From an uncultured Gemmataceae bacterium (GTDB lineage: Bacteria > Planctomycetota > Planctomycetia > Gemmatales > Gemmataceae), in assembly GCA_963750165.1 (NCBI GenBank), contig CAVVPN010000001.1, forward strand, positions 160,001 through 224,000: a stretch of DNA of 64,000 bases. Reading direction: 5' to 3'. The notes below the pieces were generated by a model, which made no database searches, was not told where the DNA came from, and was given only the letters and a program-made list of their open reading frames with translations. Below, piece after piece: positions 9,624-39,321 of this stretch. Position 1 is the first letter of the stretch, and every line of letters begins with the position of its first letter. The translations under genes and the position numbers were made by a program.

Positions 9624-9848
9624 ATGGGCATCACCGTCGAAGCCGTGTACGAGAACGGCACCCTCAAGGCGGAACGCCCCTTGCCGCTTCAGGAGCACGA
9701 AAAAGTACGGGTGACCGTGGATCGCCACCCCAGTCTGGCCGAGCAATGCTACGGAATGTTACCAAGTAGGTTGGCAAAGCAGCAGGGCAAGGACCCCGGT
9801 TTCGCCGTAAGTCCTTGCTCTGCTTTATATGCCGGAGACAGGACTTGA
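9624..9848 (+). CDS. DUF104/AF2212-like antitoxin, probably truncated after ~9760
   Basis: MGITVEAVYENGTLK...PLPLQEHEKVRVTV; the tail runs into the tRNA 3' flank; no toxin follows. Confidence 0.65.
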   Translation: MGITVEAVYENGTLKAERPLPLQEHEKVRVTVDRHPSLAEQCYGMLPSRLAKQQGKDPGFAVSPCSALYAGDRT

Positions 9849-9914
9849 ACCTGCACGACCATTACAGTCACCAGGCCCTCAACCTGGCGCGTCTGCCAAT
9901 TCCGCCACTCCGGC
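9830..9914 (-). tRNA. tRNA-Leu(GAG)
   Basis: GCCGGAG acceptor stem, TGGCGGAATTGGCAGAC D-arm, CCAGG-TTGAGGG-CCTGG anticodon arm, long variable arm, GTTCAAGTC T-loop; CCA not encoded. Confidence 0.97.
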
Positions 9915-11274: not shown

Positions 11275-11501
11275 TGCTCTGAAAATCCCCTTCAGGCGGG
11301 TGCCGGTTCGAGGGTAACTCGATGTCCCAACTTCTCCAGGCGGTTGACCAGTTGGCGGGTCAGGAGTTCCGGTTCCAGCCGGTCCAGGAAGTCCGCACCC
11401 AGTTCCTCGTAGCTCGTGCCGCGCTTCGGCAGGTGGTAGACGATCATCAGCAACGAGTGCCCCAAGGCCACCAGCCCAGCGCCTTCTTGCGTCCGCGCCA
11501 T
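11275..11501 (-). pseudogene. IS110-family transposase C-terminal remnant with element end
   Basis: VALGHSLLMIVYHL..RGTSYEELGADFLDRLEPE..TRQLVNRLEKLGHRVTLEPA*, followed by ATTTTCAGAGCAG. Confidence 0.78.
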
Positions 11502-12892
11502 CAGGACCTTGCGGGCACGGCGGCGAAGAGCGCGGCGAGCCCTTCGGCCATCGTCGGGTGAGTCAGGGTCGCATCGCGCAGGGCCACGTAGGGCAGCCCC
11601 GCGGTCATGGCGACCTGGACGATTGTCATGACCGCGCCGGCCTCAAAGCTGAACGCGGTGAAGCCGAGGATACGGTCGCTGTCGGCAGCGACCAGGGCCT
11701 TGAAAAAGCCGCGCGGCTCGGAGAGCGTCCGGGTGCGGAGGATTGCCGTCGCGGACAGTTTCGCCAGCCGGTAGGCGATCCCGCACCCCTTCGCCTCCGA
11801 CTCGTTCAGGCCGACTCTGGCCAGTTCGGGGTCAGTGAACAGGCAGAAGGGAACGAGGCGGCCGGCCGTCGTGCGGTCGATGCCGACGAGGTTGTTGTGG
11901 ACCACGCGGACGTCGTCGTCGGCGACATGCGTGAAGTGGGGGCTGCCGGCGCAGTCTCCCACCGCCCAGACGCCGGGGGCCGTGGTCCGCAGGCGCTCAT
12001 CGACCTTAACGAAACCCCGTTCGTCCCGCTCCACCCCGGCGTACTCCAGGCCGATGCCGTCGGTGTTCGGCGTCCGGCCGCCCGCGACCAGCAGGTCCGA
12101 CCCCTCGATCGTTTCCGCAGTCCCGCCCCGCGTGAGGCGCAGCCTCACGGCGGTGCCGGACTGCCCCTCCACGCGCTCGACGTGCGCGCCCGTGCGGACC
12201 TCAATCCCCTCATCCAGGAAGAGGTCGCGTAGGGCCTCCGAGACGTCGCGATCCTCCCGATGGGCCAGGGTGTCGTTGCGCTCGACGACCGTCACCCGGC
12301 TGCCGAAGCGCCGGAGGGCCTGGGCGAATTCGAGGCCGACGTAGCCGCCACCCAGAACGAGCAGGTGCTCCGGGACTCGGTCCAGTTCGAGCGTCTCGAT
12401 GGGGGTCATCGGCCGGGCCTCGGCCAGACCAGGGATCGGCTCGATCCGCGCCCGGGAACCCGTACTGATCACGACGACATCGCCCCGCAGCCGGCGCGTT
12501 GGGCCGTCGGTGGCCCTCACCTCTATCGTCCTGGGGCCGACGAATCGGCCCTGCCCCATGACCAGTTCCGCGCCGCTCTCCCGATACCTCCGGTGATTCA
12601 GCGCGACCATCCCCTCGACCATCTTCCGCTTTCCTTCGCGGACGGCGGTCATCTCGACCTTCCAGTCTCCGTGGGCGATGCCAAATTCGCAACCCCTGCG
12701 GAAATAGGCGGCGACCTTCGCGCTGTGGATCAAATACTTGCTCGGTAGACAGGCGATGCTAGGGCAGGAGCCCGTGACGTACTGCCGCTCGACGACCGCT
12801 GTGCGTTTGCCCTGCGCGGCCAGCGACCAGGCCAAGAACCTGCCCCTCCCGCTGCCGAGCACCACCAGGTCGTATTCCTCGGGTTGTGACAC
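11501..12892 (-). CDS. Flavin-disulfide oxidoreductase (RclA/MerA-like, lacking the MerA C-terminal Cys pair)
   Basis: GSGRG, redox motif CPSIAC, GGGYVGLE, GDCAG, HPTMAE. Confidence 0.9.
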   Translation of the reverse strand: MSQPEEYDLVVLGSGRGRFLAWSLAAQGKRTAVVERQYVTGSCPSIACLPSKYLIHSAKVAAYFRRGCEFGIAHGDWKVEMTAVREGKRKMVEGMVALNHRRYRESGAELVMGQGRFVGPRTIEVRATDGPTRRLRGDVVVISTGSRARIEPIPGLAEARPMTPIETLELDRVPEHLLVLGGGYVGLEFAQALRRFGSRVTVVERNDTLAHREDRDVSEALRDLFLDEGIEVRTGAHVERVEGQSGTAVRLRLTRGGTAETIEGSDLLVAGGRTPNTDGIGLEYAGVERDERGFVKVDERLRTTAPGVWAVGDCAGSPHFTHVADDDVRVVHNNLVGIDRTTAGRLVPFCLFTDPELARVGLNESEAKGCGIAYRLAKLSATAILRTRTLSEPRGFFKALVAADSDRILGFTAFSFEAGAVMTIVQVAMTAGLPYVALRDATLTHPTMAEGLAALFAAVPARS

Positions 12893-12915
12893 GGTTTTCC
12901 CCTTCGCGTTGATGC

Positions 12916-13317
12916 CTATCGGGGATCCACTGCCATGGCGGCGACAATTTCGACTTCGACCAGGAACTCAGGTCGGACGAGTTGGGGGATGACCAGGAGC
13001 ATGGAGGCGGGCCGCGCGTCGCCCAGGAAGCGCGACCGCACCCTGGCGTAGGCCGGGATGTCCTCGGCGCGCGTCAGATACTGGGTGACCTTGACGATGT
13101 CGCCGACGGTCATGCCGACCCGCTCCAGCAAGCTGATGACATGCTGCCAGGAGCGCTCGGCCTGGCCCGCGACGCCACCGGGAAGTTCGCCGGTCGTCGA
13201 AAGGCCGGGAGTTCCGGACATCAACAACCATCGCAGGCCGGGCTTAACCTCGATGGCGTCGCTGTAGGCCCCGATCTGTTTGGCAACGCCAAGGTCATGG
13301 ACGGCGTGCGTCGTCAT
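12916..13317 (-). CDS. Rid (YjgF/YER057c/UK114) family protein
   Basis: GAYSDA, MSGTPG, IVKVTQYL, RPASMLL, LVEVEIVA. Confidence 0.9.
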   Translation of the reverse strand: MTTHAVHDLGVAKQIGAYSDAIEVKPGLRWLLMSGTPGLSTTGELPGGVAGQAERSWQHVISLLERVGMTVGDIVKVTQYLTRAEDIPAYARVRSRFLGDARPASMLLVIPQLVRPEFLVEVEIVAAMAVDPR

Positions 13318-13380
13318 GGCACCTCCTCTGAGGGAACTGACACCGGGGCGAATTTGTTCTCCAATCGGCCCTCGATTTCT

Positions 13381-13857
13381 CTACCTTGCCTGGTCTTGCG
13401 GTGGCCCCGCGCGGGCTGTCCCCAGTGCCTCGCCCGCCGTGTACAGGGCGGTTCCCAGCAGGACAACGTCCTTGAGCAAGAACTGCCCCGGTAGGGCCGA
13501 CAATGCCGGGAAGCCACCCAGGCTTGCCTCCCAGCCCGGCGTGGTGATCAGGAAGCTCAGCGTGGTCAGGAACATTCCCGCCGCAAGGAGACTGCCTAGC
13601 GCCGAACCCCTCGGCCACACAGGACGCAGCGCGACCAGCACCCCGAGGGCGATCTCGATCACACCCAGCACCGCGGCGAACTGACCCACGCTCAGGACGC
13701 GGTAAACCCAGGCCAGCGGGGGGCTGTTCGCCACCAGCGGTCGGACGCCTCCGGCCTCGTAGGCCGTGAACTTCATTCCGCCGATCCAGAGTAGCACGAC
13801 CACCAGCCCGTAACGGGAGGCGTGTGTGCCGATCATCTTCAGTCGATCACTCAGCAT
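13381..13857 (-). CDS. rclC: DUF417/RclC (YkgB)-like inner-membrane protein
   Basis: LWIGGMKFTAYEA..VRPLVANSP, TTLSFLITTPG, GQFLLKD. Confidence 0.85.
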   Translation of the reverse strand: MLSDRLKMIGTHASRYGLVVVLLWIGGMKFTAYEAGGVRPLVANSPPLAWVYRVLSVGQFAAVLGVIEIALGVLVALRPVWPRGSALGSLLAAGMFLTTLSFLITTPGWEASLGGFPALSALPGQFLLKDVVLLGTALYTAGEALGTARAGPPQDQAR

Positions 13858-13889
13858 CAAACTCGGCTCCGGTTGGGGCAAGGCAGCCG

Positions 13890-14513
13890 TCAGTCGCCAC
13901 GGGATTTCTGCTTCTCAAGCACCGGGTAGCCGCGGACGTACACCCAGTCGTCTTTCTTGGCCGGCACGTGACACACCCGACAGTCGGTCTTGTAGTCCGT
14001 GGTCACGTTGCGCGCGGGCTCCTTGGCCAGGAACAGGGCCCAGCCCCAGCCGTCGCCCCACAGGTCGTTGCCGGGGAAGCGACCCTTGGCGTCCTTGATC
14101 ATCACGAACCAGAGCTTGATGCCCGTGGCTCGGTGCGCCTGCCCCGTGGTGAGCCGCTCCGAATCGACCCCGGTGACTTCCTTCACCAACACCGCGCCGT
14201 CAGGGAACTTGCCGTCCCGTTGATACGCCCGGACGTCCTCCGGCCGCGCGTAGGTGATGTGCAACTCATCGACTGGTTGGTTCGGTTTCGTGGCCACGGC
14301 GTACGTGCCCACATACTGGAACGTCTTGCGGTAATCGGTCGGCCGCGTAATGCCGCCGTCCTTCGTGACGAAGGGCGAGAAGTCGCCGGCCGCCTGGGCG
14401 GGCCGCTTGTCCGGCAGCGCCGACTGTGACTCGCCGGGCGCGATCGTCGCCGCGACGAGCGCCGTCAAGGCCAGGCAGGCGGCGGCCAGCCGGCAGAGAA
14501 TCCTGGTATTCAT
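13890..14513 (-). CDS. Cytochrome P460-family protein (second copy, divergent)
   Basis: Signal peptide; RPTDYR; FPDGAVLVKE; WGDGWGWALF; C-terminal CRVCH; YPVL. Confidence 0.87.
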   Translation of the reverse strand: MNTRILCRLAAACLALTALVAATIAPGESQSALPDKRPAQAAGDFSPFVTKDGGITRPTDYRKTFQYVGTYAVATKPNQPVDELHITYARPEDVRAYQRDGKFPDGAVLVKEVTGVDSERLTTGQAHRATGIKLWFVMIKDAKGRFPGNDLWGDGWGWALFLAKEPARNVTTDYKTDCRVCHVPAKKDDWVYVRGYPVLEKQKSRGD

Positions 14514-14590
14514 GGGGTGCGTCTCCTGGGTTTGGGGCAGGGGACGCGGGGCGGCCCGGACGAGTCGGCCGCACCGCGCTCCGGGCCACC

Positions 14591-15196
14591 TTATTTCGAG
14601 CGCGGGGCCGCCGCACGCAGGACGGGGTAGTACTGACTGAAGACGAAGTCCTTCGCGGCGTTGGTCTGGTGACAACTGTTGCACGCGAAGGCGGCGTTCT
14701 TCGCCACCTCCTTTTTGAGGGGGAGCTTGTGGCCGAAGCTGAAGTAAGCCCAGTTGCCGGGCTCGTCCTTGAAGCGCTTCGAGTCCTTGATGGACGCCTC
14801 CAGGCCGGTGAAGTCGCCCATGAAGTAACCCTTGCCGCTGGTCGCCTTCTTGGTTCCGACGCTGATGAGATCCTTGACGATGACGGTGCCGTCGCGGAAC
14901 TCGCCGGTCTTTTGGTAGTGGGCGTAGCTTTCGGGGTCGATGTAGACCGCGTGGAACTCGGGGAACGGGGCCTCGCCTCCGTTGAGTTCGTTGGGGGTCA
15001 AAGGCGTGCCGATGTACACCCATTGGCGATAGCCGACCGGCTGTTTGAGCTTCCCGTCAGGGGTGTATTCGACCAGCGCCTTCTTCTGGCCGCCGCCGGA
15101 CTGCGGGGCAGCCCCGGCCAGCACATACGACAGTCCGGCGACCCCGACCAGGATCGCGACGCCCGCGATCACTCGTGACCTGTTCGATCCGAGCAT
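14591..15196 (-). CDS. cytL: Cytochrome P460 (CytL-like)
   Basis: Signal peptide; YRQWVYIGTPLTPNELNGGEAPF; FRDGTVIVK; GLEASIKDSKRF; GNWAYF; CNSCH; FSQYYPVLRAA. Confidence 0.92.
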   Translation of the reverse strand: MLGSNRSRVIAGVAILVGVAGLSYVLAGAAPQSGGGQKKALVEYTPDGKLKQPVGYRQWVYIGTPLTPNELNGGEAPFPEFHAVYIDPESYAHYQKTGEFRDGTVIVKDLISVGTKKATSGKGYFMGDFTGLEASIKDSKRFKDEPGNWAYFSFGHKLPLKKEVAKNAAFACNSCHQTNAAKDFVFSQYYPVLRAAAPRSK

Positions 15197-15457
15197 GGTG
15201 CTACCTCCTCGCTTTCGGGAAAAGAGATGGTTGTGCCGTCGTCCGGTTGCGTCAGGGGAGGGGCCGCGTGCCCGGACACGAAGTCGCCCCTGCGGAGGTC
15301 CGCGCCCCCGATGGCGTGGACGCGGCTCGACACCGCGCCCGCCTGTGGTCGCGGCCACCCGTTCATGCCCTCTTCGTCTACAATAAAAAGCGTGGAGAAG
15401 GTATCACCTGGCCGCGATCTTGTTGCCCTGGTGTCGCGGCGACGTCGGGGAGTTACC

Positions 15458-16093
15458 ATGCACGACGAACCCACCTCAGCCGTCGTCAAGCGCTACCTGG
15501 ATGAGCTTGCCGACGGTTCGCCCGCCGAGCCAATCATCCGGGCCCTGCTGGCCCGGGCCGTTCACCGGTTGCAGCAGTTGTGCAGTTCGCTGCTCTTCCG
15601 GAGTTACCCGCGGCTGACGCAGCCGCCGCTGAACCTGCAGGCGGACGAGATGCTCGGCGCCTTGGTGGAGCGCCTGCTCAAGGCCCTGCGTGAAGCACGC
15701 CCCGCGACCGTCCGACAATTCCTCGCTTTGGCCTCCCAACACGTGCGCTGGGAGTTGAATGACCTGGCCCGCCGCCTAGATGAACAGCCCGCCGCCGTGG
15801 AACTGCTCGACGGGGGCGTACCGGCGCCGGCCAGTAGCGACTCGGGCCTCACCCCGGTGGCCCGCCGTATGATCGAGGCGATCGACCGCCTGCCGGAGGG
15901 CGAGCGCGAGGCGTTCGACCTGGTGCGCATTCAGGGGATGACGCAGGCTGAGGCCGCCCAGGTCCTCGGCGTCACGGTGTTGACCGTCAAGCGGCGCCTG
16001 AACCGCTGCATGCGCGTGCTGACCGCAACGCTCCGAGACCTCGCGCCGGGCGGCGCGTCTGCCCCGGCCGTGCGTGGAGGGTCTGCATCATGA
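15458..16093 (+). CDS. ECF sigma factor associated with a Ser/Thr kinase
   Basis: Region 4 LPEGEREAFDLVRIQGMTQAEAAQVLGV..VKRRL; ATGA overlap with the kinase. Confidence 0.88.
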   Translation: MHDEPTSAVVKRYLDELADGSPAEPIIRALLARAVHRLQQLCSSLLFRSYPRLTQPPLNLQADEMLGALVERLLKALREARPATVRQFLALASQHVRWELNDLARRLDEQPAAVELLDGGVPAPASSDSGLTPVARRMIEAIDRLPEGEREAFDLVRIQGMTQAEAAQVLGVTVLTVKRRLNRCMRVLTATLRDLAPGGASAPAVRGGSAS

Positions 16094-19000
16094 CCGACGA
16101 CCCGCGCGTGCAACAGCTACTCGACGAATTGTTCGATTCCCACGTCACGCCGGAAGAAGTCTGCGGCTCCTGCCCCGAGTTGCTGCCCGAGGTCCGCGAC
16201 CAATGGCGGCAGATGTGTCGCGTCCGGGACGAACTCGACGCGCTGCTCCCGCCGCCCGACGCGGAGTTGGACCCGACGGAGGCACCGCCGGGCGGCGGCG
16301 CCCTGCCCCAGATCCCTGGCTATGAAGTCCAGGAGGTGTTGGGCCACGGCGGAATGGGCATCGTCTACAAAGCCCGACACCTGCACCTCAACCGCGCGGT
16401 CGCCCTGAAGATGCTGCTCGCCGGCGCGGGCCCCCAACCGGAGTACCGGCAACGCTTCTTGCGGGAAGCGGAAGCGGTGGCGTGCTTGCGGCATCCGAAC
16501 ATCGTCCAGGTCCACGACATCGGCAACCAGAACGGCCAACCCTACTTCACGATGGAGTTTGTCGAGGGCGGCAACCTGGCCCAGAAATTGGCGGGCGCGC
16601 CCCAACCTCCCAAACAAGCCGCCGCGCTGCTGGCGACCCTGGCCGAGGCCGTGCAGGCGGCCCACCAGAGCGGTATCGTGCATCGGGATCTGAAGCCGGC
16701 GAACGTCCTCCTTACCGCCGACGGCACGCCCAAGATCAGCGACTTCGGGCTGGCCCGGCGGTTGGACGGCGCGGCCGGCCTCACTCGGACCGGCACCGCG
16801 CTGGGGACGCCGAGCTACATGGCCCCCGAGCAAGCCGAAGCCAGGCCGCTCACGGTGGGGCCTGCCGTCGATATTTATGCTTTGGGGGCCATCCTGTACG
16901 AACTGCTGACCGGCCGACCGCCGTTCCGGGCGGAAACGGCGGTGGAAACCGTCCGTCAGTTGACCTCCCAGGACCCGGTGCCGCCGTCGCGGCTCAACGG
17001 TAAGGTGCCCCGCGACCTGGAGACCGTCTGCCTCAAGTGCCTCCACAAGATCCCCGCCCGCCGCTACGCCAGCGCCCGGGATTTGGCCGACGACCTCCAT
17101 CGCTTCCTGGAGGGCAAGCCAGTCCGCGCCCGTCCGGTCGGGGCCGCCGAGCGCACCGTGAAGTGGGCAAGGCGGCGGCCGGCGGCGGCGGCGCTGCTGA
17201 GCGCGGCGCTGCTGGTCATGATCGGGTCGGCGGCCGAGACCGGCCTTTGGCTGCGACAGCAGGAAGCCGACCGCAATGAGGCGAAGGCTCAACGAGAGGG
17301 GAAGGCGCGTGAGGTTATCGAGAATGCACTGCGGCGAGCGGACGACCTCCGGCGGGAGGAGCGGTGGGCAGAGGCGCTACACGTCTTGACGGAGGCATCG
17401 ACCCAGTTCCCGGAAACCGGCTCGCCGCCGTTAGAGGTCCGGCTCCGGCAGGCGCAGTCGGACCTCCGAATCGCCGCCGACCTTGAGCGCGTTCGGGAGA
17501 ACAGTCCGCTCCAGCCCGACGGCGGAATCGACTACTCGCAGTGGGCGAAGGCATACCAGGAGGCGTTTGATCGGGTGGGGCTCCGGACCGGCGACGACCC
17601 GGAAACGGTCGCGGCTTACATGCGGGCCTCTGCGATCCGCAACCAACTCGTGGCCGCCGCCGACAACCGGGCGGTCGTGGAGTTCATGGTGAACGACGGG
17701 CCGCTGGTGGAGCGACTCTTGCGGATCGCCCGACTGGCCGATCCGGAGCCGCGCTGGCGGGGCCGATTCCGCGACCCGGCCGTCTGGCGCGGCCGGGAGC
17801 GACTCCTTCAGCTCGCCGCCGACGCATTCAACACCTCGCCGCCCCCGCCGGGGCATCAACTGTCGTTGCTCGGACTGTTGCTGATGAGGGCGAAGGCTTT
17901 TAGCCAGAGCGCTGAGTTGCTGGGCGAGGCGTGTCGTCGCCAACCGAACAACTTCTGGCTCAACCGCGAGATGGGCACTGCGCTGTTCAGGCAAGCCCGG
18001 TTCCTGGAGTCGGCCGCCTACCGCCGCGCCGCGTTGGCGTTGCGGCCGGACAACGCCGGGGCCCATGAGGCGCTCGGCATGACCTTGTTCCGCACCGGCC
18101 AGACCGATGCCGCCCTTGCCGCGTACCGCCGTGCTGTTGAGTTGTCCCCCACCGGTCGTTCGTCCCGTACGCGCCTCGTGGGCGCCCTGGCGGAAGCCGG
18201 CTACTGGAAGGAGGCGGAGGCCGAGTGTCGCCGCGCCCTCGAGATCGACCCTGCCAACTACCTCGCGCCCAGCCGTCTGGCCTTGGTTCTTTGGGAACAC
18301 CGACGGCATGAGGACGCGATCGTCCTGTCTCGCAAGGTGATCGAGATCAACCCCGCCGTCGTCGAAGCGTACACTTATCTCGGCTATTCCTTGATGCGGA
18401 TGGGCCGACACGACGACGCCGTGACGGCCTTGCGCAAAGTGACGGAGTTGACCCCGAAGAACGCCAATGTTCGCCAGCAGTTGGCCCATGGACTGGCCGA
18501 GATCGGATGTCCTGAGGAAGCCATCACCCAGCTGCAAAGCGCGAGCGCCCTGATGCCCAACATCTCGTTCTACAGGGAATTGGGCACGCTGCTCCGGGCG
18601 CAGGGCCGGCCGGAGGCGGCGGCCGCTGCCTACCGGAAGGCTGCGAACCTCGACCCTCAAATCGGCGTGGTCTGGGACGAACTGGCGGCGTCGTTGCTCG
18701 ACCTGGGTCGCTTCGCCGAAGCCCGCGCGGCGACGCAACGTTCGCTAGATCTGCCCGCGACAGCAGCGGACCGCCGAGCGCAGCAGCGACAACGGGACCT
18801 CTGCGACGCGCTGCTCTCCGTCGATGCCGACCTCCCTGCAATCCTCGCAGGTAAAGAGCGGCCGAGGAAGGTATCCACCCAGCTGGCTCTGGCAGAGTGG
18901 TGCCTGAAGCACAGGCGCCTGCCGGCCACGGCCGTGGGTTTTTATGACGCGGCCCTCGCGGCGAAACCGTCCCTCATCGACGACCTGGAGGCCGGCCATC

Positions 19001-19956
19001 GGTTTGACGCCGCCTGTGCGGCCGCCGCCGGCAGTGGAGTCGGCAAGGACGTCGCCGAATTTGACGGCCAGCGGCGGGCGGCGCTGCGCCGGCAGGCGCT
19101 CAACTGGTTGACGGCCGAGTACGACGCCTGGGCGGCACGACACCGCGTCGGCAAACGAGGCGACCGGACGGTCGTGGCGACGGCCATGCGCTCCTGGCGG
19201 CAGAACAAGGACCTGGCCGGGGTTCGCGAAGAGCAAGCGTTGGCCAAATTGCCCCTGGAGGAGCGACGATCCTGGCAAACGCTTTGGGCCAACGTGGCGA
19301 CGCTCGCGGCGCGTGACCCGGTCGCCTTGTTCGACCAGGCCCGAGTGCATGTCAGCCGGCGGGAGTGGGGGAAGGCGGCCGAGTGTTACGCCGCGGCGTT
19401 CGATCTGGAGCCTACGGAAAACGGCGAACTCTGGTTCGAGTATGCCGCGGCGCAACTGCTCGCAGGGGACCGGCCGGGCTACCGCCGAACGTGCGCTCAG
19501 ATGCTGGCCCGCTGTCAACCGAAGGGGCCGATGCGTCCCTACCTCGTCGCCCGCGCCTGTACGCTGGCGCCCGATTCGGCCGATGACCCGGAACTGCCGG
19601 GCCGGCTGTCTTCCCGCGAACTGCTGCAAAGTCGGAATGCGTATTGGTCGCTCACCGAACAGGCCGCCCTGGCTTTCCGGGCGGGTCAGTTTCAGGAGGC
19701 CGTGCCGCTGCTGGAAGGCAGCATCACGGCCGACGGGCGGCCCGGCCGGGCGGTGGTGAACTGGTTGTGGCTGGCGCTCGTCTACCACAGGACGGGCAAG
19801 AACGACGAAGCACTGCGGCAGTTGGACAAGGCCGCCGGTTGGTTGGACCAACAGGGCGGTCGGATGCCGCTCGAAACCTCCGCCATGGGAATGCACCGGC
19901 ACAACTGGCTCGAAGCCAACGTACTGCTACAGGAGGCGGAGGGGCTGCTTCGATAG
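16090..19956 (+). CDS. Ser/Thr protein kinase with TPR repeats
   Basis: LGHGGMG, VALK, HRDLKPAN, DFG, GTPSYMAPE; multiple TPR-like repeats in the C-terminal half. Confidence 0.95.
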   Translation: MTDDPRVQQLLDELFDSHVTPEEVCGSCPELLPEVRDQWRQMCRVRDELDALLPPPDAELDPTEAPPGGGALPQIPGYEVQEVLGHGGMGIVYKARHLHLNRAVALKMLLAGAGPQPEYRQRFLREAEAVACLRHPNIVQVHDIGNQNGQPYFTMEFVEGGNLAQKLAGAPQPPKQAAALLATLAEAVQAAHQSGIVHRDLKPANVLLTADGTPKISDFGLARRLDGAAGLTRTGTALGTPSYMAPEQAEARPLTVGPAVDIYALGAILYELLTGRPPFRAETAVETVRQLTSQDPVPPSRLNGKVPRDLETVCLKCLHKIPARRYASARDLADDLHRFLEGKPVRARPVGAAERTVKWARRRPAAAALLSAALLVMIGSAAETGLWLRQQEADRNEAKAQREGKAREVIENALRRADDLRREERWAEALHVLTEASTQFPETGSPPLEVRLRQAQSDLRIAADLERVRENSPLQPDGGIDYSQWAKAYQEAFDRVGLRTGDDPETVAAYMRASAIRNQLVAAADNRAVVEFMVNDGPLVERLLRIARLADPEPRWRGRFRDPAVWRGRERLLQLAADAFNTSPPPPGHQLSLLGLLLMRAKAFSQSAELLGEACRRQPNNFWLNREMGTALFRQARFLESAAYRRAALALRPDNAGAHEALGMTLFRTGQTDAALAAYRRAVELSPTGRSSRTRLVGALAEAGYWKEAEAECRRALEIDPANYLAPSRLALVLWEHRRHEDAIVLSRKVIEINPAVVEAYTYLGYSLMRMGRHDDAVTALRKVTELTPKNANVRQQLAHGLAEIGCPEEAITQLQSASALMPNISFYRELGTLLRAQGRPEAAAAAYRKAANLDPQIGVVWDELAASLLDLGRFAEARAATQRSLDLPATAADRRAQQRQRDLCDALLSVDADLPAILAGKERPRKVSTQLALAEWCLKHRRLPATAVGFYDAALAAKPSLIDDLEAGHRFDAACAAAAGSGVGKDVAEFDGQRRAALRRQALNWLTAEYDAWAARHRVGKRGDRTVVATAMRSWRQNKDLAGVREEQALAKLPLEERRSWQTLWANVATLAARDPVALFDQARVHVSRREWGKAAECYAAAFDLEPTENGELWFEYAAAQLLAGDRPGYRRTCAQMLARCQPKGPMRPYLVARACTLAPDSADDPELPGRLSSRELLQSRNAYWSLTEQAALAFRAGQFQEAVPLLEGSITADGRPGRAVVNWLWLALVYHRTGKNDEALRQLDKAAGWLDQQGGRMPLETSAMGMHRHNWLEANVLLQEAEGLLR

Positions 19957-19986: not shown

Positions 19987-20853
19987 TCATCCGCCCCGGT
20001 CGCCCGGCGAGAATTTTACCGAGCCGGGGCTGATGAGCGACTGAGTCTCTTTGATCAGCGCGGAGAGTTTCAGGACGGTCAGCGTGAACTCCGTCAGTTG
20101 CTCGCAACCGTCGGGACAGACCCAGACGTAGCAATCCCCGCTCCTCCCGACGTAGCAGGCGTCTCTCGGGACATCCCGGCAGCGACCAACACGGAACCAG
20201 CCGGGCCGGACCCGGGCCAGGTCGCGTTGGATGGACTCGATCTTGCGGCAAACAACCCTTGCCAGTGGGGAGCGGTCACCCGGGGCACATGCCTGCGTAC
20301 AGACGGATTCGTCGTTCGTCGTGACGATACGGGCCTCCAGGTCGCGGGCGTTCTTGCTGGCTCCGCCCTGGAACTCGTAGAACCAGGCAGACTCGTTCCT
20401 GAGATCGGCGTTGGGGGCGAACTGATCCTTCAACTCGTGAGCCAGTTCATCGAGGAAATCGGGCGACGGCATGTCGGGGAAGCCGTGGGCGCGGCGATAG
20501 GCGATGAGGAGGAGCCGCAACTCAGTGGCGTCAATAACAGGCTCCATCCCCCATTGGGCGACGGCGGTCCGCGAGCCGAACAGTTGGGGTTGGGTCGAAG
20601 CCGGGGGGCCGAGGTCTACCAACGCCCCTCCCGAGATCGAATCGGTGAGCTGGGAAGTCCCTTCCTTGAGATGTACGTGCCAGGGGAGGGCCGATGGGTT
20701 GACGGCGGACTGGGCGAGGTTGTTGAGAACCTGCTGGTATTGCAACTCGGGCAGGGTACTCGCCTGGTGGATCGTCCGCTGTCGGAGTCGCGTCGTCGTA
20801 CAGCCGACCGCACACCACAAACAGGCGGCGAGGAGGAGCCAGGTGAGGCGCAT
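19987..20853 (-). CDS. Hypothetical lipoprotein
   Basis: MRLTWLLLAACLWCAVGC lipobox; open 288-codon frame. Confidence 0.7.
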   Translation of the reverse strand: MRLTWLLLAACLWCAVGCTTTRLRQRTIHQASTLPELQYQQVLNNLAQSAVNPSALPWHVHLKEGTSQLTDSISGGALVDLGPPASTQPQLFGSRTAVAQWGMEPVIDATELRLLLIAYRRAHGFPDMPSPDFLDELAHELKDQFAPNADLRNESAWFYEFQGGASKNARDLEARIVTTNDESVCTQACAPGDRSPLARVVCRKIESIQRDLARVRPGWFRVGRCRDVPRDACYVGRSGDCYVWVCPDGCEQLTEFTLTVLKLSALIKETQSLISPGSVKFSPGDRGG

Positions 20854-21678: not shown

Positions 21679-22059
21679 TCAGGCAAACAACTCAAGGAGC
21701 GTGGCGACGACCCGGTCAGCCTCCTTTGGGCTGATCGCCCCCAGTTTCTTCAGCAGGCGCTCCTTGTCGAGGGTGCGGATTTGGTCGAGGGCGACTTGCC
21801 CCGCCCGCTTGTGAAATTGGACATTTACGCGGGAGGGGTATGGACGTGGCACGGTGGTCATGGGCGCGACGATGACGGTGCGCAGGAAGTCGTTCAGCTC
21901 GTCGGGCGACACGATGAGACATGGTCTCGTCTTGCGGATTTCAGCCCCCAATGTAGGATCGAGCGAGACCAGATAGACCTCGAAGCGTTTGGGGGAAACG
22001 GCCGAGATGCCTCGCCTGGCTCGCCGTTCCCTTGCGGCGGCTTTCACTCCGCCTGCCAT
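21679..22059 (-). CDS. mazF: PemK/MazF toxin
   Basis: LDPTLGAEIRKTRPCLIVSPDELN, VAPMTT, LDQIRTLDKERL. Confidence 0.92.
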   Translation of the reverse strand: MAGGVKAAARERRARRGISAVSPKRFEVYLVSLDPTLGAEIRKTRPCLIVSPDELNDFLRTVIVAPMTTVPRPYPSRVNVQFHKRAGQVALDQIRTLDKERLLKKLGAISPKEADRVVATLLELFA

Positions 22060-22298
22060 TGCCACTCGTCCGCGTCCCAGATGTTAGCAAGGGTGCTGGG
22101 TATCAACGGGGTCTCGTCCTGGCTGGCCTGGGAAAAGGCCCTTGCCCATCCTTCACGGGACCTGCGGGCTGGGGCGATCAGCAGCCCCTCGGGCCGCACT
22201 GTGATTTCGACAGTTCGGGTCAGGCCGGACTGCTCGATGAGGGCCTTGGGGATGCGGACGCCTCGGGAGTTGCCGATAGGGATAAGCTCAGATTTCAT
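22044..22298 (-). CDS. mazE: AbrB/MazE antitoxin
   Basis: IGNSRGVRIPKALIEQ; REGW; ends EWQW; overlaps the toxin. Confidence 0.92.
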   Translation of the reverse strand: MKSELIPIGNSRGVRIPKALIEQSGLTRTVEITVRPEGLLIAPARRSREGWARAFSQASQDETPLIPSTLANIWDADEWQWQAE

Positions 22299-22432: not shown

Positions 22433-23950
22433 CTGAACTGTCGCACGCTTCCATGAACAGACGAACACCGATAGTGTCACGGGGCTGTCGCAGAAAGAGA
22501 GAGGGGTTCCTCCTAAGTTTGTGCATAGGTTCTCAAGCCATGCACTCGCCGGAAGGAGCCCCTCATGTGGCTGATGATAGCTTCTCTCCAGCCCATCGTC
22601 CAAGCCCTCGCCCCGGCCTTCACCCTGCCCTCGTTCCACACCCACTGCCAACTCGTGCTCGGCTGGGTGATGTGCCTGGGCCAGCACCGCCTCTGTCGCG
22701 TCGCCGACACCGCCCAACCCCAAGACTTGCGGGACCATTCCCGGCGCCACGGCCTGGACACCACCTACAACTTCTTTGCGCGCTCCGCCTGGACCGTGAC
22801 CGGGTTGGCCTACCACGTCGCCGTCCTCATCCTGACGCGCCTCCACCTGGGCGGCACCATCACGCTGTTGGTGGACGACACCCTGGCCCACAAGCGCGGC
22901 AAGCACGTCTGGGGCCTCGGCTGGTTCCGCGATGCCGTCGCCTCGACCCGCAAACGCACCGCCACGGCCGCGGGGCACAACTGGGTGGTCGTCGCCGTCG
23001 CCGTCTGCCTGCCCTTCGCGAACGCCCCGATCCTGGCGTTGCCCTTGCTGGCCCGGTTGCACCGGCCCGGCCAGGCGCAGCCGTCCTGCCCACTGCTGGC
23101 GCGCGCCTGCTCGCCGAAGTGCTGGCCTGGTTCCCCGGCCGGCGCTTTACCCTGGTGGCCGACGGCGCTTACGCGGCCCAAGCGCTGCTGGCGGACCTGG
23201 ACGAGCGCGTGACCTTCGTCGGCCGGTTGCGCGGCGACGCGGCCGTGTACGACCCGCGTCTGCCTCAGGCCAAGCCCGGCCGGCGCGGCCGCAAGGCGCA
23301 GAAGGGGCCGCGTCTGCCCAACCCCAAAGCAGCCGCCGCCAAGGCCGACCGTAAGCGCGTGGCCACCGGGGACTGGGTGTGGCAGGCGGTGACGGTGACC
23401 GTCTACGGGGAGCAGCGCGTCCTGCGGGCGTTCGCCTACCGGGCGGTGTGGCCGCGGGTGTTGGGGTTGCGGCCGGTGCAGGTGGTGGTGGTGCGCGACC
23501 CGGACGGGAAGTTGGACGATGCCTACCTGTTCACGACCGACGTGCGTGCGGACGTGGGGTGGGTGATTACGCAGTTCGCCTGGCGCTGGTCCATTGAGGT
23601 ACTGTTCCGGGCGAGCAAACAGGTGCTGGACCTCGAGGCGCCACAACACTACAGTCGGGAAGCGGTGGAGAAGGTGGCGCCGTGGGTGTGGTCGTTGCAG
23701 AGCGTCGTGATGGTGTGGTATCTTACCGCCGGTCGGCAGTTGCCGGAGGCGGAGGAATTGCGCAAGTGATGGGACCCTGGGAGAGTGAATGGTCGTTGCG
23801 TCATATGGTTGCCGTGTTGCGGCGGGCGACTTTGAACGCCCTAATTAAACCCAAGTCGGCCGATGCAACGGAACTCCTGAAACTCATCGAAGCGCTGAAA
23901 AACTGCGTAAATCTCGCGGTTTGAGCACTCGGAAAAGTGCGACTGCCAAG
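22433..23950 (+). mobile_element. IS701-family insertion sequence
   Basis: Imperfect IRs CTGAACTGTCGCACGCTTCC / CTTGGCAGTCGCACTTTTCC; 4-bp target duplication GGAT on both sides. Confidence 0.88.
22565..23924 (+). CDS. IS701-family transposase (frameshifts ~23105 and ~23765)
   Basis: LVDDTLAHKRGK, VADGAYA, RWSIEVLFRASKQ. Confidence 0.85.
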
Positions 23951-37952: not shown

Positions 37953-39321
37953 TCAAACTGCCGTAACCGCTTCCATCAAGGTCCAGAGCCCTTCGGCCAG
38001 TGTCGGGTGGATATAGATCGCCCCCTTCAGAAGCGTGTAAGGGGCGCCCGCGAGCATGACCGCGCCGAGGATCTGCACGACCTCACCCCCCTCCGTGGAC
38101 AGGATGGCCGCGCCGAGGATCCGGTCCGTTTCAGCATCGACCACGAGCTTCATCAGCCCGGCCGTCTCGTCGATCTCGACGGCGCGGGCGACCCACGCCA
38201 TCGGGATCTTGCCGACCTTGAGCCGGCGCCCCCCGCCCGCGCCTCCTTCTCGGTCAGCCCGACACGTCCCAGCTGGGGGTCGGTGAAGACGGCGTAGGGG
38301 ACCGGGCGGTTGTCGGTGGTGAGAGCTTTGCCATCCACCAGGTTGGCATACACGATCTGGTAATCGTTGAAGGAGATGTGTGTGAACGCCGGGCCGCCCT
38401 TCACGTCCCCCAGGGCCCAGACGCCCGGCACGCTCGTCTCCAACCGGTTGTTCACGTGGATGAATCCCCGTTGATCGGTCTGCACGCCGGCCTCTTGCAA
38501 TCCCAGGTCGTCCGTATTGGGTTTGCGGCCGGTGGCGACCAGTAAGTGCGACCCGTGCACCGTCTCCGTGATTCCCGCCGCTACCACACTCACGGCGACC
38601 CCACCCTGCTCCTTCTCGACGCGGGTGGTCGTGGCACTCAGGAGAAAACGGAGGCCCTCGCCCTCCAGGGCTTGTTGCAAGGCTCCGGCGACATCGGCGT
38701 CCTCGTGGGCGAGGATTTGCTGTCCCCGCTCGACGACGGTCACGCGGCTGCCGAACCGGCGGAACATCTGCCCGAATTCCATGCCAATGTAGCCACCGCC
38801 GAGGATGAGCAAGTGCTCCGGCACCTCGGTCAATCGCATGATGCTGGCGTTGTCCAGGAAGTCGATGCCACCCAGGCCTTCCAGGGGCGGAATAACCGGC
38901 CTCGCGCCCGTGTTAATAAAGATGCGCTCGCTCTCGAGCTGTTCTTCGCCGACGCGGACCACATGCGGGCCGATGAAGCGGGCATGCCCGCGGTAGAGGT
39001 GCAGACTCTGCCGCTCCTCGACCTTCCGGTTCAACCCGGCGCGCGACTGTCCCACAACCCGATCCTTGCGGGCGACCACCTTGGGCAGGTCCACACTGAC
39101 CGCGCCGCGCGGACCCCCCATCGGTCGGAGTTGCGCGCGTAATGGGCGACCTGGGCCGAGGCGATCATCGTCTTGGTCGGCGTGCAGCCCGTGTTAATAC
39201 AGGTTCCGCCAAAGTCTCCCTTCTCGACCAGCGCCACGGTCCAGCCGCGGTCGGCCAGTTTCTCCGCCAGCGGGACCCCGGCCTGGCCGGAGCCAATCAC
39301 GATGGCATCATAGTGCGGCAT
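37953..39321 (-). CDS. Flavin-disulfide oxidoreductase (RclA/MerA-like; frameshifts ~39110 and ~38235)
   Basis: GSGQAG, GGTCINTGCTPTK, GGGYIGME, GDVKGG, HPTLAE. Confidence 0.88.

Follow-up and report, generated by a model that had tools for sequence, protein, structure and literature searches.

The DNA stretch analyzed here (the window) is 64,000 nucleotides from an uncultured Gemmataceae bacterium of the Planctomycetota (assembly GCA_963750165.1, contig CAVVPN010000001.1, positions 160,001 to 224,000), and it carries a minus-strand run of five genes for two cytochrome P460 proteins (P460a and P460b), a DUF417 membrane protein, a Rid-family protein, and a flavoprotein disulfide reductase (Table 1). 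Cytochrome P460 is the hydroxylamine oxidase and nitrous oxide (N2O) source of nitrifiers and methanotrophs. We tentatively read the run, at slightly less than an even chance, as a mobile oxidant-stress operon, likely switched by a neighboring extracytoplasmic function (ECF) sigma factor and kinase, whose periplasmic arm is a conserved pair of two P460 types that would act on hydroxylamine-like compounds. It is a variant of Rcl-like oxidant-defense loci, built around a P460a/P460b pair that is apparently undescribed. More broadly, the likely role of this pair in ordinary bacteria is to help remove reactive nitrogen or chlorine compounds at the envelope of the cell. An earlier note on this DNA had proposed an Rcl-like system; that interpretation is partly supported, and it had missed both the two P460 subfamilies and the occurrence of the pair ahead of urease genes.

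On sequence evidence, P460a and P460b are different ancient subfamilies. P460a matches the solved P460s of Nitrosomonas europaea (2JE2, E 8e-59) and Nitrosomonas sp. AL212 (6AMG, 2e-55), and it has a capping Phe78, Lys108 at the cross-link site, Glu133 as the distal base, a C-terminal CxxCH (172-176), and a hydrophobic N-terminal stretch that predicts export. P460b, 34% identical to P460a, keeps the lysine (Lys111) and CxxCH (178-182) but has Phe136 at the distal-base position and Val81 at the cap. The lysine cross-link, distal carboxylate, and capping Phe are all needed for hydroxylamine oxidation (PMC11928373, in part). Because P460a keeps this Lys/Glu/Phe set whereas P460b has Phe in place of the base, we predict that P460a is active as a hydroxylamine-oxidizing P460, and that P460b belongs neither to the catalytic P460s nor to the cytochromes c'-beta. 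A residue census covered 132 P460 sequences, namely those of the window and matches in 77 surveyed loci, after matches of at most 120 residues or with stops were dropped. All 91 a-type sequences carried the Lys and the capping Phe, and the distal residue was Glu in 86 and Ala in 5. All 41 b-type sequences carried the Lys and had Phe at the Glu position, with a smaller aliphatic cap, and a profile alignment concurred. The structural model of P460b (predicted local distance difference test, pLDDT, 84.8) has the P460 fold, with a Foldseek template-modeling score of ~0.64. In a quick 34-row tree, the a and b types formed separate clades (approximate likelihood-ratio support, SH-aLRT, 94 and 92) with mirrored subtrees. 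A recent tandem duplication is ruled out by these clades and mirrored subtrees, together with the 34% identity.

Structure prediction gave the a-b complex a score of 0.60, compared to 0.01 for the best control, with runs agreeing on at least 90% of contacts and a partner pLDDT of at least 77. The mark for a complex is reached by 116 of 157 solved pairs and 2 of 215 mismatched pairs, and scores of 0.60 or lower among these belong to 18 solved pairs and both mismatches. This modeling lends weak support to an a-b complex, and the homodimers of solved P460s could account for the pass. An obligate heterodimer was rejected, as b occurs without a in a plasmid cassette described below and in L098, L189, and L191, and a occurs without b in 36 of the 77 loci. 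Other arrangements were also seen. All 14 long a-type open reading frames (ORFs) chosen for inspection (L036, L037, L042, L043, L048, L049, L053, L055, L061, L062, L064, L069, L070, and L072) fuse P460a to a divergent P460-like domain with the Lys and without the carboxylate, and five of them carry three CxxCH domains. In Aquincola (L096:7863-8825), a single gene joins P460b and a cytochrome c domain, with msrB and ergothioneine genes nearby. L011, L012, L013, L016, and L019 carry an additional P460 beside P460a and P460b, of an Ala type that resembles the inactive AL212 form.

The pair recurs across Planctomycetota, Pseudomonadota, and Acidobacteriota. We surveyed P460a in 77 genome loci and the b type in 80 metagenome loci (many of them short), and because flanks extended at most 6 kb per locus, longer versions of the run are undercounted. 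A b-type gene was present in 41 of the 77 P460a loci, directly downstream of a in 35, and an a-type gene in 52 of the 80 b-type metagenome loci, often in b-a order. Among cultured bacteria, Singulisphaera sp. GP187 encodes P460a and the reductase, Paludisphaera mucosa encodes P460b, and Nitrosospira multiformis encodes both P460 types. Among the 77 loci, DUF417 occurred in 17, an ECF gene of the same subtype in 9 (beside P460a), Rid in 8, and a reductase-family gene in 11, 9 of which were at least 54% identical to ours. Thus, the run does recur in other genomes, as the earlier note had asked of it, but all five genes stand together in only 3 of the 77 genome loci (L006, L020, and L021) and 1 of the 80 metagenome loci (L111).

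The reductase and DUF417 protein connect the run to the Rcl system of Escherichia coli. The best solved match of the reductase is RclA (6KGY), with 35% identity to the E. coli protein, and it has CxxxxC (Cys43/Cys48) and HxxxxE (His445/Glu450) motifs. In a 25-row tree, where RclA forms a long branch, the clade of the reductase is the sister of RclA (support 99/98) and separate from MerA, lipoamide dehydrogenase, and glutathione reductase. RclA-sister reductases next to P460 genes come from different subclades. The DUF417 protein (PF04224, 111 bits) keeps both lysines matching Lys43 and Lys128 of RcrB (numbering offset 10) and neither of the matching tryptophans. In RcrB, Lys43, Lys128, and Trp44 are essential and Trp60 partially so (bioRxiv 10.64898/2026.03.12.711259, in part). 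The kinship to RclA and RclC that had been suggested is supported, but the names RclA, RclC, and RidA are not: the reductase scores 335 bits against the NCBIfam RclA cut-off of 740, the DUF417 protein 90 against the RclC equivalog cut-off of 275, and none of the reductase, DUF417, and Rid proteins reaches its NCBIfam family cut-off.

These shortfalls count against a true Rcl system for hypothiocyanite (HOSCN) and hypochlorous acid, in which P460 would replace RclB and the ECF-kinase pair would replace RclR. Such a system would account for the presence of DUF417 and an RclA-sister reductase in one run, and for periplasmic proteins encoded between the regulator and DUF417 as in rclR/rclABC. Two lysines, Lys13 and Lys16 of RclA, mark HOSCN reductases (PMC11107202 and PMC9335216, both in part), and our reductase has Arg at both positions, which retains the positive charge. 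One residue is also deleted in this flavin adenine dinucleotide (FAD) loop; because L006, L021, and L111 share the deletion along with the Arg/Arg form, a sequencing error is ruled out. However, at the Lys13 position, members of the wider clade carry Glu, Val, Ala, or Gln. RclB is a small, Cys-free DUF1471 protein (PMC12096828, in part) with nothing in common with a heme enzyme; nothing ties P460 to its role, and neither the RclR nor the RclB family had a hit among the seven locus proteins scanned. Moreover, ungapped HMMER alignments to 2B33, 2DYY, and 6IZH place Ser at the RidA Arg105 position of Rid, although a three-row MAFFT alignment instead placed another Rid Arg there at the cost of gaps. 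Arg105 is required for deaminase activity (PMC4433059, in part) and full chaperone activation (PMC9126958, in part) of RidA. Rid is therefore predicted to be no imine deaminase, and the Ser weakens the chaperone argument that had been made for it. Overall, we regard a strict Rcl system as very improbable.

RclR-like AraC proteins often stand beside P460 in Pseudomonadota, in keeping with the Rcl connection drawn before: of 8 AraC proteins tested, 7 had RclR as their top NCBIfam hit, Cys89 was kept in 7 of 7 aligned, and a Cys lay no more than three columns from Cys21 in 6 of 7. Roles for Cys89 and Cys21 are described in PMC7464077, parts of which also report RclR-like regulators to be unresponsive to nitric oxide (NO) or peroxynitrite. 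In Thiodiazotropha (5 loci), a Cupin_6 AraC gene diverges from P460a-P460b-MsrB-glutaredoxin/thioredoxin reductase (Grx/TrxR), and in Colwellia (3 loci) from P460a, with MsrA and OsmC. Nitrosomonadaceae (3 loci) have DUF692 genes and Grx/TrxR near P460, and L097 is a thiol-stress island of Grx/AhpD/AraC/DUF417/glutathione S-transferase/P460a/P460b. P460b also matches 42 plasmid records, and an AraC-AhpD-P460b cassette was found in 5 of the 9 examined. These cassettes lie on plasmids of Ralstonia, Sphingobium, Alicycliphilus, Pseudomonas, and E. coli (L094, L099, L100, L101, and L102), often adjoining mercury-resistance or transposon genes, and P460b is broken in L099, L101, and L102.

To control for chance, a marker set fixed beforehand was scored within 4 kb of P460 in 20 new loci, hand-picked from search matches with author-set thresholds and in some cases sharing a genome, and in control windows from the same genomes. 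A marker was present at 5 of 20 loci vs. 5 of 80 control windows (p 0.025), and in 12 of 1039 windows of the present genome. The near flanks of five loci were known beforehand; in the blind subset of 15, the counts were 4 of 15 vs. 4 of 60 (p 0.046), leaving 11 blind loci without an oxidant marker, and the test loci are not independent. The 77-locus tally is circular, because its marker queries were drawn from those same loci. When 108 of the 144 flanking ORFs were scanned with Pfam, with no matching control set, Hsp33, AhpD, and AhpC-domain neighbors emerged at three more loci. The link of P460 to oxidant defense is real but partial, and the enrichment is modest.

Like the circular tally and the marker-free blind loci, several other results weigh against an oxidant role for the pair. 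The AraC proteins score 69-138 against the RclR cut-off of 400 bits, and the plasmid cassettes largely represent a single mobile element, which is broken in some copies. Wild-type, cross-linked N. europaea P460 (NeP460) has no peroxidase activity (PMC11928373, in part), so simple peroxide removal by P460 is unlikely. We found no P460 activity on chlorine species in print, and chlorite dismutase had no match in the present genome, which is 93% complete. Neighboring genes of the uracil-DNA glycosylase (UDG) family, globins, and Crp-type regulators, which flank P460a in 8, 4, and 10 of the 77 loci, point to nitrogen stress. Finally, 15 of the 80 metagenome loci have the order P460b-P460a-beta-propeller-ureD-ureA(-ureB-ureC), and a proteobacterial genome has amidase-amidase-P460a-P460b-propeller-urease (L190:1480-10972). 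The urease-linked metagenome loci are L142, L143, L149, L150, L153, L155, L159, L161, L164, L168, L174, L176, L178, L182, and L183. In L023, L024, L026, L028, and L201, a gene of this propeller family is located either between P460a and b or after them, and a UDG-family gene is next to P460a in L024, L031, L038, L041, L049, L052, and L070.

These neighborhoods could be explained if the pair handled purely hydroxylamine and NO, shielding heterotrophs from hydroxylamine produced by nitrifiers or by urease or amidase chemistry, with DUF417, Rid, and reductase as general stress cargo and chlorine playing no part. Urease can release hydroxylamine from hydroxyurea. The full hydroxylamine-oxidizing residue set of P460a fits this explanation, as do the globin and UDG neighbors and the title of a cited paper, which states that hydroxylamine inhibits urease. 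In addition, the L190 pair from the urease setting groups with the L097 pair from the oxidant island in both gene trees, which argues that one chemistry serves both contexts. However, urease had no match in the present genome, and most of the urease loci belong to a single group of soil contigs that resemble one another. Moreover, the RclR-like regulators that flank P460 in several proteobacterial lineages belong to the type described above as unresponsive to NO and peroxynitrite. We consider this alternative possible but somewhat unlikely.

It could also be that the five genes are simply cargo of a mobile stress island and share no pathway. The b type is patchy, occurring in 1 of 36 same-family genomes and 2 of 401 of a phylum sample that counts the present genome, gene content differs between close loci, and a transposase remnant marks the 3' end of the run. 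The ECF-kinase cassette likewise has four close paralogues elsewhere in the genome, each divergent from different cargo, contrary to the suggestion that it stands in for RclR. One of them fronts another reductase of the same RclA-sister clade and a gene that we take to be Dps-like. The paralogous cassettes lie at C11:857172, C3:486174, C4:461954, and C4:635121, and three have a partial copy of an upstream motif. In related loci, this 18-19 nt motif stands ~60 nt from the ECF start (9 of 9); the window copy failed a 6-mismatch search. Still, the ECF-kinase pair is a plausible local regulator of the five-gene run, though not a counterpart of RclR. An ECF gene with a small Cys-bearing partner was seen in 14 of the 77 P460a loci. 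Against unconnected cargo, the a and b types remain paired across phyla, in either order and with mirrored subtrees, and the pair is repeatedly accompanied by DUF417, AhpD, and RclA-sister genes in lineages that are unrelated. In addition, dN/dS (nonsynonymous to synonymous substitution rates) was 0.09-0.31 for all five genes in 15 of 15 pairwise comparisons (vs. L006, L020, and L021). The five genes are real and evolving under purifying selection, and we judge shared cargo without a shared pathway to be decidedly improbable.

Returning to the oxidant-stress operon, which is predicted to protect the cell from small reactive oxidants in three compartments, we infer each functional step of its mechanism from gene content, residues, and their conservation. 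Stress would activate the kinase and the ECF sigma factor. DUF417 would then quench hypohalous oxidants at the inner membrane, as in RcrB, and the RclA-sister reductase, using NAD(P)H and Cys43/Cys48, would reduce an oxidant or an oxidized thiol in the cytoplasm. In the periplasm, P460a may mature under the same stress and oxidize hydroxylamine or an NH2-X compound such as monochloramine. Formation of the Lys-heme cross-link in N. europaea P460 requires peroxide (PMC11928373, in part), and such peroxide-dependent maturation would give a reason for oxidant-linked expression. P460b, lacking the base, would be incapable of this chemistry alone and might serve as a partner subunit, as an electron relay, or as a sink for NO. 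Rid may be a non-catalytic binder. The pair would act in the periplasm on a small NH2-X compound and be recruited by whichever operons meet that compound, which would fit both the oxidant and urease contexts. At this locus, it would work alongside a membrane quencher and a cytoplasmic reductase of reactive-chlorine type. In a bolder form, which we consider doubtful, a heterodimer of catalytic a and base-less b, matured by the inducing oxidant, would destroy monochloramine or hydroxylamine in the periplasm outside nitrifiers. It would be the first heme enzyme of reactive-chlorine regulons, traveling on plasmids under RclR-like control.

The layout of the locus is given in Table 1. Coordinates and Pfam families agree with the earlier description of five closely spaced minus-strand genes divergent from an ECF-kinase pair.

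Table 1. Features at and around the P460 gene run (window coordinates).
Feature	Coordinates	Strand	Details
P460a, exported cytochrome P460 of N. europaea type (predicted)	14591..15196	-	201 aa; PF16694
P460b, exported P460-fold paralogue (predicted)	13890..14513	-	207 aa; PF16694
DUF417 membrane protein, RclC/RcrB relative, no Cys	13381..13857	-	158 aa; PF04224
Rid-family protein	12916..13317	-	133 aa; PF01042
Group I flavoprotein disulfide reductase	11501..12892	-	463 aa; PF07992+PF02852
ECF sigma factor, divergent, candidate regulator	15458..16093	+	Pfam
Ser/Thr kinase with tetratricopeptide (TPR) repeats, candidate ECF activator	16090..19956	+	overlaps ECF stop; Pfam
Degenerate counterpart of 18-19 nt motif, candidate promoter element	15389..15407	-	placed by eye
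Lipoprotein-like Planctomycetota gene	19987..20853	-	beyond the earlier note's coordinates
Transposase C-terminal remnant	11292..11480	-	just past reductase; intact copy on contig C3

Intergenic gaps from P460a to the reductase are 77, 32, 63, and 23 nt, and from this spacing the five genes are likely co-transcribed as one operon. A sigma-70 promoter search at the run found none, and 3 terminator-like sites were found vs. 2.5 expected by chance, one of them within DUF417 on the coding strand. PF16694 scores were 105.6 bits for P460a and 87.1 bits for P460b, with a cut-off of 27. The closest relatives are labeled Planctomycetota. The genome has cytochrome c assembly genes and no match to ammonia monooxygenase (AMO), although the AMO control itself gave no signal; with that limit, a nitrifier host was rejected. 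Two matches to PF02955 could provide the glutathione for an RcrB-like mechanism, or they may be other ATP-grasp enzymes. The lipoprotein-like gene had no family in Pfam, NCBIfam, or Atlas; relatives occur in 11 of the 77 P460a loci, and in L020 and L022 they sit immediately upstream of P460a.

Further out, a tRNA-Leu (9830-9914) lies 1.6 kb past the reductase, followed by toxin-antitoxin-like genes, and is a possible island boundary. The transposase remnant is presumably IS110-like. Beyond the lipoprotein-like gene are a two-gene pair (21679-22298), which we take to be MazE/MazF-like, and a frameshifted gene (22453-23769), presumably a transposase. A second flavin-disulfide reductase (~37959-39315) is split across three frames, and a DUF417 paralogue on contig C3 is also split; both may reflect long-read errors.

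The earlier note knew of no description of this gene combination, in agreement with our literature search, which left subscription journals outside its range. The search returned no P460 with RclA, with carboxymuconolactone and AraC, or in a context combining upregulation, oxidative stress, and plasmids, and it returned P460 with methionine sulfoxide only as co-mentions in unrelated papers. The text of review PMC11928373 contains neither "operon" nor "adjacent," and the text of bioRxiv 10.1101/2021.12.08.471835 has no P460, although its neighbor table and supplements may list it. Transposon-borne P460 genes in Nitrospira were taken as nitrogen-cycle cargo (PMC8649781, in part), and base-less P460s are called unresolved in part of the 2025 review (PMC11928373). 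This locus and its relatives bear on why heterotrophs carry P460. They delineate a widespread P460b subfamily, none of whose members has a solved structure, and they caution that P460 genes in metagenomes are no marker of nitrification. Should P460a prove active, soil bacteria that do not nitrify could release N2O in a stress-linked manner.

Compared to NeP460 and the AL212 protein, P460a keeps the Lys, Glu, and Phe and P460b keeps the fold and Lys, but the host has no AMO match and two subfamilies stand in tandem. Arg44 of NeP460 is replaced by His at the locus, as in AL212. The base position of P460b is Phe, in contrast to Glu, Asp, Ala, or Gly in six solved types (PMC11928373, in part). Cytochrome c'-beta (6HIH, 7EAD, and 7S5O) shares with P460b the fold and a hydrophobic distal pocket without a carboxylate, but it lacks the cross-link Lys that every b-type sequence keeps. 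The locus DUF417 protein resembles RcrB of uropathogenic E. coli in its lysines, though with 22% identity; as in RclC, Phe replaces Trp44 and Trp60 is missing. The RclR-RclX/RcsA system of Pseudomonas aeruginosa (AraC plus an AhpD-like protein) matches the AraC-AhpD-P460b plasmid cassette by layout, and that layout is absent from the window; the portion of its literature consulted describes no P460 with that system. Finally, E. coli rclR-rclABC and our locus share DUF417, a related flavin reductase, exported small proteins, and a divergent regulator, but our locus lacks RclR and RclB and adds heme proteins and Rid.

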